A DNA stretch of 4,288 nt. Origin: Escherichia coli. GTDB lineage: Bacteria; Pseudomonadota; Gammaproteobacteria; Enterobacterales; Enterobacteriaceae. Shown here one piece after another: positions 1,567 through 2,562 of the stretch. The notes under the pieces are model-generated. The model was not told the origin of the DNA and did no database searches. It saw only the letters and a program-made list of their open reading frames with translations. The stretch lies in the NCBI RefSeq assembly GCF_003334385.1, contig NZ_QOWN01000087.1, one strand, 5' to 3'. The first letter of the stretch is position 1, and each line of letters begins with the position of its first letter. A program made the position numbers and the translations under genes.

Positions 1567-2562
1567 GTGACCGTGAGAGCACTACTGACCCCTGAAATTG
1601 CCCCGCGTATGGGGATCGTATTGTTCAGGCCAGGTTCAGAGCTGATGCCCCTGTTTATGCAGGGGCGTGTCCTGCTGGAGCCTGAGCCGGAACGTTATTC
1701 ATCTTTTGCCAGTGGTGCCGTTCCGGCATCATCACAACCGCTGGCGGATGATCCTGCCGTTCGGGCCGTGTTCCGCCATGAGGCGGTGATCCGTCGTGCT
1801 GGTGGCGTGGAATGCCTTGAGAGCTGGTTACTTCGTGAAAAGGGCTGTCAGTGGCCTCATTCCGACTGGCACAGCGAGAACATGACCACAATGCGGCACG
1901 CGCCAGGCGCAATCCGTCTGTGCTGGCACTGTGACAATCTTCTCCGTGACCAGTTCACGGAACGGCTGGAAGCAATGGCAACGGATAACTGTGCCCGCTG
2001 GGTGTTATCTGTTGTGCGCCGTGATCTTGGTTTTGATGACAGTCACGTTGTGACAATGCCGGAACTGTGCTGGTGGCTGATTCGTAATGACCTGGCGGAT
2101 GCCTTACCGGAAAGTGCAGCCCGTAAGGCACTGAGATTACCGAAGCCTGTTGTGCCGTCTGTCACCCGGGAAAGTGACCTTGTGCCTTCGGTTCCTGCCA
2201 CCAGCATCATCCAGGATAAGGCGAAAAAGGTGCTGGCGCTGAAAGTGGATCCGGAGTCGCCGGAGTCTTTTATGTTACGCCCAAAACGTCGCCGCTGGGT
2301 TAATGAAAAGTACACGCGCTGGGTTAAGACACAGCCGTGTGCATGTTGTGGAAAGCCTGCTGATGATCCCCACCACCTGATAGGCCACGGTCAGGGTGGT
2401 ATGGGGACAAAAGCGCATGACCTTTTTGTGTTGCCGTTGTGCAGAAAACACCATGACAAACTGCATGCGGATACCGTGGCATTTGAAGAGAAGTATGGTT
2501 CCCAACTGGAGCTGATATTTCGTTTTATCGATCGCGCGCTGGCGATTGGTGTGCTGTCCTGA
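1567..2562 (+). CDS. DUF968-like prophage protein with C-terminal Cys/His cluster (putative HNH/zinc-binding nuclease-like domain)
   Basis: Long ORF ending TGA 2560-2562. Start is uncertain: GTG 1567 (1 nt after the upstream stop), GTG 1573 (GAGG 1564-1567 as SD, 5-nt spacer) or ATG 1609. C-terminal motif [23 protein letters not shown]...[11 protein letters not shown] is typical of DUF968 proteins found between nin genes and Q in enterobacterial prophages. Recognition by eye. Confidence 0.7.
1798..1805 (+). other. Chi octamer 5'-GCTGGTGG-3'
   Basis: Exact octamer at 1798-1805 (cgt gct ggt ggc gtg) inside the DUF968-like gene. Confidence 0.6.
2069..2076 (+). other. Chi octamer 5'-GCTGGTGG-3'
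   Basis: Exact octamer at 2069-2076 (ctg tgc tgg tgg ctg) inside the DUF968-like gene. Confidence 0.6.
2198..2205 (-). other. Chi octamer on the minus strand (+ strand reads CCACCAGC)
   Basis: Exact reverse complement of GCTGGTGG at 2198-2205. It is the only one of the six in this orientation. Confidence 0.6.

Follow-up and report, generated by a model that had tools for sequence, protein, structure and literature searches.

The closest described relatives of the protein studied here come from two lines of work. In the 2017 classification of His-Me finger proteins by Jablonska et al., DUF968 was grouped with DUF1364/YbcO (PDB 3G27) in group 7, for which YdfU of the Qin prophage was named and RusA, Q and an antirepressor were listed as typical neighbours (PMC5714182). 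A recombination role was already proposed for this group, and lambda NinG/Rap and DUF968 are treated as functional analogues in the published hypothesis (PMC5714182), while YdfU was still among the uncharacterised K-12 genes in the 2024 y-ome list. The second line concerns Gp16 of the S. aureus phage phiNM1 (PMC12817073, January 2026). This early protein resembles NinB at its N-terminus and carries an HNH domain at its C-terminus; it nicks plasmid DNA, RecA, to which it binds, stimulates it, and phage DNA does not replicate efficiently without it. RecA is required for Gp16 to arrest host growth, and overexpression of Gp16 condenses the nucleoid; a H157A mutant is still growth-inhibitory whereas mutations in the zinc site abolish the phenotype, and C181A loses nuclease activity and phenotype together (PMC12817073). 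A further relative, as described below, is PdcB of phage P1, a non-essential protein of no known function whose gene is among the most conserved in P1-like phage-plasmids.

The stretch of DNA that we analysed (the window: 4,288 nucleotides of Escherichia coli contig NZ_QOWN01000087.1) is the early-right and late-regulatory part of a lambdoid prophage, with an early block of RusA, KilA-N, DUF968 and Q. In full, the order on the + strand is the 3' end of a LexA-like/HTH gene, RusA, KilA-N, DUF968, Q, a 205-aa ORF and a small ORF ending at 4087 (Table 1). On E. coli chromosomes, the best matches extend over 97% of the window with an identity of only 92%, and carry the same gene order in their annotation.

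The DUF968 gene is an ordinary intact copy of a known and very common prophage family. The first-pass annotation, made from the letters alone, had called its product DUF968-like, and profile searches agree with this and point to no different, well-characterised family: Pfam DUF968 (PF06147) matches residues 162-328 (E=1e-80, model positions 2-171 of 171), PHROG 96, 'HNH endonuclease', matches over the full length (1.7e-175), and homologues are named 'DUF968 domain-containing protein' in RefSeq. No NCBIfam model matched the protein, and when its full sequence was searched against the PDB, chance zinc-finger matches were all that came up. At a coverage of at least 80%, the gene was found in 2,363 of 5,426 complete E. 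coli genomes (about 44%), with as many as six matching places in a single genome. Stx2-/Stx-converting, cdt-converting and Shigella serotype-converting phages carry it too, and a protein cluster of more than 9,500 sequences matches our allele at 97-98% identity. These counts, together with the y-ome entry for YdfU, bear out the earlier description of the family as common but largely uncharacterised. A second profile search, against a database of 5.8 billion proteins, yielded little that was new, most of its matches being close homologues already found. One match (P0221, 2,334 aa with 21 matched stretches) was discarded as a spurious repeat-protein hit.

Table 1. Features of the DUF968 locus, with positions counted from the first nucleotide of the window
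Feature	Coordinates	Strand	Remarks
RusA Holliday-junction resolvase gene	192..587	+	Upstream, same operon; PHROG 34 (6e-58), RefSeq homologous locus
KilA-N (Roi-like) DNA-binding protein gene	750..1565	+	Immediately upstream; stop 7 nt before DUF968 start; PHROG 129, RefSeq
GAGG, Shine-Dalgarno-like element	1564..1567	+	5 nt upstream of GTG 1573; read from sequence
YdfU/DUF968-family CDS	1573..2562	+	329 aa plus stop; ORF list, Pfam, PHROG, RefSeq homologue of 990 nt, dN/dS
N-terminal family-specific domain	1573..2130	+	Residues 1-186, alpha/beta, without assignable fold relative
Predicted second zinc site	1846..1932	+	C92 1846-1848, H100 1870-1872, C117 1921-1923, C120 1930-1932
Linker motif [RK]-E-[STA]-D-[IL]-x-P	2167..2187	+	Residues R199-P205, within an otherwise variable linker
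HNH / His-Me finger core (predicted)	2338..2466	+	From C256 (nt 2338) to H298 (nt 2464-2466); zinc site C256, C259, C290, H293; catalytic set H267-H268, D283, H294, H298
Antiterminator Q gene	2580..2972	+	Immediately downstream; PHROG 79, RefSeq
Chi	1798..1805	+	GCT GGT GG(C), codons of conserved A76-G77-G78
Chi	2069..2076	+	T[GC TGG TGG], codons of conserved C166-W167-W168
Chi	2198..2205	-	A-T-S codons in the linker

The open reading frame reported earlier, 1567..2562 (+), exists in the ORF list and in its maximal form, begun at GTG 1567, encodes 331 aa. The true start is probably GTG 1573, which gives a product of 329 aa; we prefer it because a GAGG element lies 5 nt upstream, because the RefSeq annotation is 990 nt long and because homologues are proteins of 329 aa starting with MRALL. 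A Klebsiella homologue has an ATG at the position matching GTG 1573. Residue numbers refer throughout to the 329-aa form. The GAGG element overlaps the TGA stop codon of the KilA-N gene (1563-1565), suggesting that the two genes are translationally coupled. At the other end of the block, the RusA start overlaps the stop of the LexA-like/HTH ORF (ATGA, window 192-195), a further sign of translational coupling along the operon. Compared with close relatives, the DUF968 gene is under strong purifying selection (dN/dS 0.04-0.06 at a dS of about 0.2), and is therefore a functional gene and no prophage debris.

The Cys/His cluster that had been noticed in the C-terminal part (about 2335-2480) and read as a metal-binding HNH-like or zinc-finger nuclease motif is present as quoted, and profiles, structural modelling and conservation all argue for the predicted HNH fold and its ligands. 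An AlphaFold2 model built on 48 homologues (26-98% identity) has a mean pLDDT of 88.4 and contains a beta-beta-alpha element at residues 265-299, with strands at 265-268 and 286-289 and a helix at 291-299. According to this model, the C-terminal 75 or so residues are a zinc-stabilised beta-beta-alpha-metal (HNH) nuclease domain, with the fold that defines the HNH / His-Me superfamily. C256, C259, C290 and H293 make up the predicted structural zinc site, of the CxxC ... CxxC/H type found in the superfamily. H268, at the end of strand 1, occupies the usual position of the general base, and H294 and H298, on the helix, occupy the usual positions of the catalytic-metal ligands. The HH...H-x3-H pattern, which is complete here, is that of colicin-type HNH enzymes. 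Counted in the 48 homologues, down to 26% identity, both sets of residues are conserved: C256 in 35/35, C259 in 33/36, C290 in 31/34 and H/C293 in 32/36 for the zinc site, and H268 in 30/34, D283 in 33/35, H294 in 29/36 and H298 in 28/34 for the catalytic set. Among structures in the PDB, the nearest to the domain are phage P1 Ref, with the highest similarity, and YbcO. We consider it very probable that the protein belongs to the HNH family.

By sequence, the closest enzyme of known activity is Gp16. An hhalign comparison of the C-terminal profile with Gp16 gives a probability of 91% (E 1.1e-6, 34% identity), and C256/C259/H268/C290/H293/H294/H298 align with Gp16 C145/C148/H157/C181/H184/H185/H189. 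Gp16 belongs to Pfam HNHc_6 (5.7e-117) and has a secondary match to DUF968; conversely, our protein has a secondary match to HNHc_6 (PF16784, the phiNM1 Gp16 / phiETA Orf20 type, E=4e-5) that takes in model positions 123-184 of 204 only, that is, the HNH core and not the NinB/Orf-like N-terminal domain of the full-length family. These reciprocal matches point to DUF968 and HNHc_6 as sister families with a common nuclease core.

The Pfam model of DUF968 leaves the N-terminal domain unannotated. This domain is confidently predicted in the AlphaFold2 model, and we detected no relative of it in sequence or fold in Pfam, NCBIfam or the PDB, in keeping with the earlier remark that the region belongs to no family that could be named. 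The Trp/Cys-rich motifs quoted for it are all there: CQWPHSDWH (C92-H100), CWHCDNLL (C117-L124) and CWWLIRNDL (from C166). Their conservation is uneven. A first ligand set stands out, with C92 in 47/48 homologues, H or C at position 100 in 46/48 (35 H, 11 C), C117 in 48/48 and C or H at position 120 in 48/48 (26 C, 22 H). These residues flank a beta-hairpin (104-117) and a helix (118-124), and the exchange of Cys and His at two of the four positions is what leads us to read them as a metal site. C92, H/C100, C117 and C/H120 would then form a second four-ligand zinc site, new here. Also nearly invariant in the 48-homologue alignment are Q93, G48, N139 and W168. The expectation that the Cys/His residues would be conserved thus stands for these four positions and the C-terminal set and fails for H96 (16/48) and C166 (27/44); W94, also among the residues quoted earlier, is poorly conserved too (22/48).

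We considered whether the N-terminal beta-beta-alpha element might be a duplicated HNH and rejected this, the hhalign probability between the N-terminal and C-terminal profiles being 0.25%. A catalytic N-terminal HNH was likewise rejected, since H109, the equivalent of the catalytic His, is variable (Y in 19 and H in 11 of 48), and the element is kept as a zinc knuckle. Nor is the N-terminal profile related to the NinB-like domain of Gp16 (probability 1.5%). The domain is rare: a set of 1.84 billion proteins yields 198 cluster representatives. The aligned full-length matches (about 320-370 aa) carry the HNH domain as well, and the shorter ones mostly look like fragments. Its most likely role, which is a guess, is to bring the nuclease to its target, either a DNA structure or a partner protein. 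Between the two domains, the linker is variable except for the motif R199-P205 (R/K in 41, E in 38, D in 35, I/L in 34 and P in 26 of about 45 sequences), which is kept family-wide, PdcB included, and could be a docking peptide.

DUF968 and the genes around it form a same-strand early-region block, and the gene is therefore probably co-expressed with RusA, KilA-N and Q. The neighbourhood recurs, complete or in part, in phages of E. coli, Yersinia, Providencia and Klebsiella. Yersinia phage YeP2 has the order RusA - KilA-N (53% identical) - DUF968 (50%) - Q, a Providencia phage KilA-N (54%) - DUF968 (38%) - Q, and a Klebsiella phage Dam - RusA - DUF968 (67%) - Q; Vibrio phage Cla has the DUF968 gene with neither RusA nor KilA-N. 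The KilA-N and DUF968 genes form a close pair, with stop and start within 0-7 nt of each other in the window and in two viral loci (L004 3195-5002 and L005 3213-5017), and the pair is kept in the Yersinia and Providencia phages despite a DUF968 identity of 38-50%. The KilA-N protein itself matches the PADLOC candidate system PDC-S22 over residues 63-118 (7.5e-10).

The first-pass annotation had suggested that the protein may act with RusA in recombination or DNA processing. In 80 viral loci with a 97-99% identical DUF968 gene, RusA was found upstream in 59 (with KilA-N beside it) and was not seen in 21; it is truly absent from at least 14 of these 21, in which 4.7-5 kb of upstream sequence is present. 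One locus without RusA (L008) reads DnaC - DnaB - small ORF - DUF968 - Q. Cooperation with RusA is no more than a neighbourhood inference; the link between the two genes is frequent but not obligate. Taken as a whole, the DUF968 neighbourhood matches the recombination-nuclease hypothesis for group 7 (PMC5714182).

On the downstream side, the Q gene that lies beside these 97-99% identical DUF968 genes ranges from 39-85% identity to undetectable. In the window, G+C is about 56% up to the DUF968 stop and drops sharply to about 36% beyond it (2560-2600), so that a mosaic joint can be placed after the gene. Being adjacent to the late activator follows from the position of DUF968 as the last gene of the nin block. 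Further downstream, directly after Q and in a stretch of 35-41% G+C, lies the 205-aa ORF (3039-3656, +), in a moron-like position. Its matches are to PHROG 8498 (unknown function) and, weakly, to WYL-domain models (PADLOC 1.5e-4; Pfam 0.056); a homologue is called 'WYL domain-containing protein' in some RefSeq genomes, and the best E. coli chromosomal counterpart is only 72% identical. The small ORF ending at 4087 (PHROG 331, unknown function) has a stop codon (4085-4087) that overlaps with a terminator-like hairpin at 4074-4100 (+), GCCTTC-CGCAGT-GAAGGC and then TTTTTTATTT. Another hairpin plus T-run, at about 3745-3770, failed the terminator scan and is not claimed.

An HNH protein in a prophage could also be a nuclease for defence, superinfection exclusion or host takeover, directed against foreign or host DNA. 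HNH domains are common in defence effectors, and Cap5 and McrA are also among the structural matches to the domain; the gene is retained in many, possibly cryptic, prophages, and the growth arrest and nucleoid condensation caused by overexpressed Gp16 (PMC12817073) would fit an attack on the host. Membership of a defence system was rejected, however, because PADLOC-DB 2.0 gave no family for the DUF968 protein (0 at E<=0.01). The gene moreover lies inside the early replication/nin operon and not in a moron or defence hotspot, and none of its regular neighbours is a sensor, immunity or modification partner. We regard a defence or takeover role as quite improbable.

A different alternative comes from phage P1. 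PdcB is homologous to the DUF968 protein over its full length (tblastn 26% identity over 329 aa, 100% query coverage, E of about 1e-31), sharing both zinc-ligand sets and the C-W-W motif. In the P1 order phd-doc-pdcA-pdcB-lpa-pacA, it adjoins the late-gene activator Lpa on the upstream side, as the DUF968 gene adjoins Q. The PdcB branch differs in that H267, H268, H294 and H298 are replaced, a loss seen in P1 pdcB itself (L002 4001-5044) and in the homologues P0188, P0196 and P0266, and from these replacements PdcB is probably no nuclease. The catalytic loss in PdcB and the Gp16 H157A result leave room for a family role that is partly non-catalytic. Remnants of the gene are found elsewhere: partial N-terminal matches on IncF plasmids, which we set aside, proved to be P1-derived phd-doc-pdcA plus a pdcB remnant, a block carried by many conjugative IncF plasmids. 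On IncF plasmid pH0063 (L088 2188-3276) pdcB is cut to its first ~90 codons, with an IS5 annotated about 0.9 kb beyond.

Pressed further, the PdcB branch would suggest a protein that works mainly by binding DNA or another protein, without catalysis, through its two zinc modules. It could, for example, modulate RecA, replication or late-gene switching, the HNH site being dispensable or vestigial. That branch keeps C92, C117, C256, C259 and C290, lacks the four catalytic histidines and is highly conserved all the same in P1-like phage-plasmids; in Gp16 it is the zinc-site mutants that lose the phenotype and not H157A (PMC12817073); and the gene always lies directly upstream of a late-gene activator, be it one of the unrelated Q types in lambdoid phages or Lpa in P1. 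Other points weigh against this reading. H268, H294 and H298 are kept in nearly all members of the lambdoid branch, to which our gene belongs, and the gene is under strong purifying selection; whichever gene closes the nin region will adjoin Q, so that no functional link is necessary; and in Gp16 C181A nuclease activity is lost together with the phenotype (PMC12817073). We give a mainly non-catalytic role a low probability.

The position of pdcB, about 0.6 kb upstream of pacA/pacB, also brings to mind a terminase-associated HNH protein that assists cos or pac cleavage in the manner of HK97 gp74, and cos phages do have such HNH proteins (cited in PMC12817073). In lambdoid genomes, however, Q, accessory genes and the lysis cassette separate the DUF968 gene from the packaging genes, and PdcB, the member in P1, is without the catalytic residues. 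HK97 gp74, furthermore, is a small single-domain protein, whereas the protein described here has 329 aa and two domains. A packaging role is very improbable indeed.

As first reported, the gene holds two Chi sites (GCTGGTGG) on the + strand and one on the - strand, at 1798, 2069 and 2198. They are part of six in the window (494, 1798, 2069, 3799 and 4116 on the + strand, 2198 on the - strand), against 0.16 expected in 4.3 kb from dinucleotide shuffles. At the Chi density of E. coli K-12, about 0.93 would be expected in the window (P ~4e-4). Both + strand sites of the gene fall on conserved peptide motifs, which makes them uninformative about the function of the protein: since Trp has a single codon, C-W-W is automatically a Chi wherever Cys is encoded by TGC, and the C166-W-W spot is also a Chi in P1 pdcB, in Vibrio phage Cla and in a Klebsiella phage. 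In a related but redundant set of viral loci (L007-L086, 766 kb), the density of Chi is 0.79/kb on the sense strand and 0.27/kb on the opposite one. RecBCD entering from the late-gene/cos side would recognise the + orientation, and codon usage could be partly behind the strand bias.

Homology to Gp16, an intact and conserved active site, purifying selection and a recurring neighbourhood together favour the reading of the DUF968 protein as a nuclease. With moderate confidence, we propose that it is a two-domain phage HNH nickase or endonuclease that processes phage and host DNA in replication and recombination. Using a divalent metal, the HNH domain would nick or cut DNA, duplex or branched, in the manner of Gp16 and P1 Ref, and the N-terminal zinc domain would direct it to a DNA structure or a partner protein. 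In this way the protein may aid phage DNA replication and the processing of concatemers, a general process that it would share with RusA but for which it would not need RusA. The nuclease might be stimulated by host RecA, on D-loops or on replication-recombination intermediates; by analogy with its relatives such a link to RecA is possible, if rather doubtful. A bolder extension, which we think unlikely, would make the N-terminal zinc domain an undescribed fold that docks an HNH nickase onto RecA filaments, D-loops or another replication/recombination structure, in which case DUF968 would be the enterobacterial counterpart of Gp16 and P1 Ref, and the PdcB branch a catalytically dead derivative left with docking alone.

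DUF968/YdfU is among the commonest uncharacterised prophage genes in E. coli, and the family is now tied to a nuclease clade whose first enzymology came, with Gp16, in 2026. The family was already known, and the analysis confirms what the databases hold and adds a testable hypothesis to it. What is new is the candidate second ligand set, the orphan N-terminal domain, the full-length homology to PdcB and the position of Chi sites on peptide motifs. The analysis also names candidate residues for mutation and draws attention to an unannotated second zinc domain, as predicted, that is without a fold relative. If the link to RecA holds, the family could matter for prophage induction, for recombination of lambdoid phages and for phage-antibiotic synergy, as for P1 Ref. 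If the protein in fact docks onto RecA, a RecA-coupled nuclease would be present in nearly half of E. coli strains, with possible effects on the outcome of SOS, on prophage induction and on killing by antibiotics.

Compared with known systems, the DUF968 protein shares with lambda NinG/Rap, an HNH endonuclease of branched DNA, the niche in the nin region upstream of Q and the superfamily; the two differ in architecture, and NinG/Rap (PF05766) is absent from the Pfam scan output for our protein. YbcO of DLP12 / phage 82 is a bare HNH domain of 96 aa, without N-terminal domain or linker, and its sequence similarity is marginal (E=0.8). The likeness to P1 Ref (PDB 3PLW), a RecA-dependent HNH endonuclease, is structural and does not extend to Pfam membership, the match to RecA_dep_nuc (PF16786) being non-significant (E=0.49); the N-terminus of Ref is a disordered, basic stretch of 76 residues, where our protein has a folded, predicted zinc domain. 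Gp16 has the identical motif C-x2-C ... H ... C-R-x-H-H-x3-H, and in both cases the gene is an early-region phage gene in a genome that also carries a RusA gene; in the Gram-positive relatives, a NinB/Orf-like domain takes the place of the N-terminal zinc domain seen here. Closest of all is YdfU of the E. coli Qin prophage, which has the same full-length architecture: the 349-aa proteins that we take as the YdfU type, included in the homologue alignment (A3), are 55-61% identical, and between YdfU/DUF968 of group 7 and the gene described here nothing essential differs, the neighbours (RusA, Q and an antirepressor-like gene) being alike as well.
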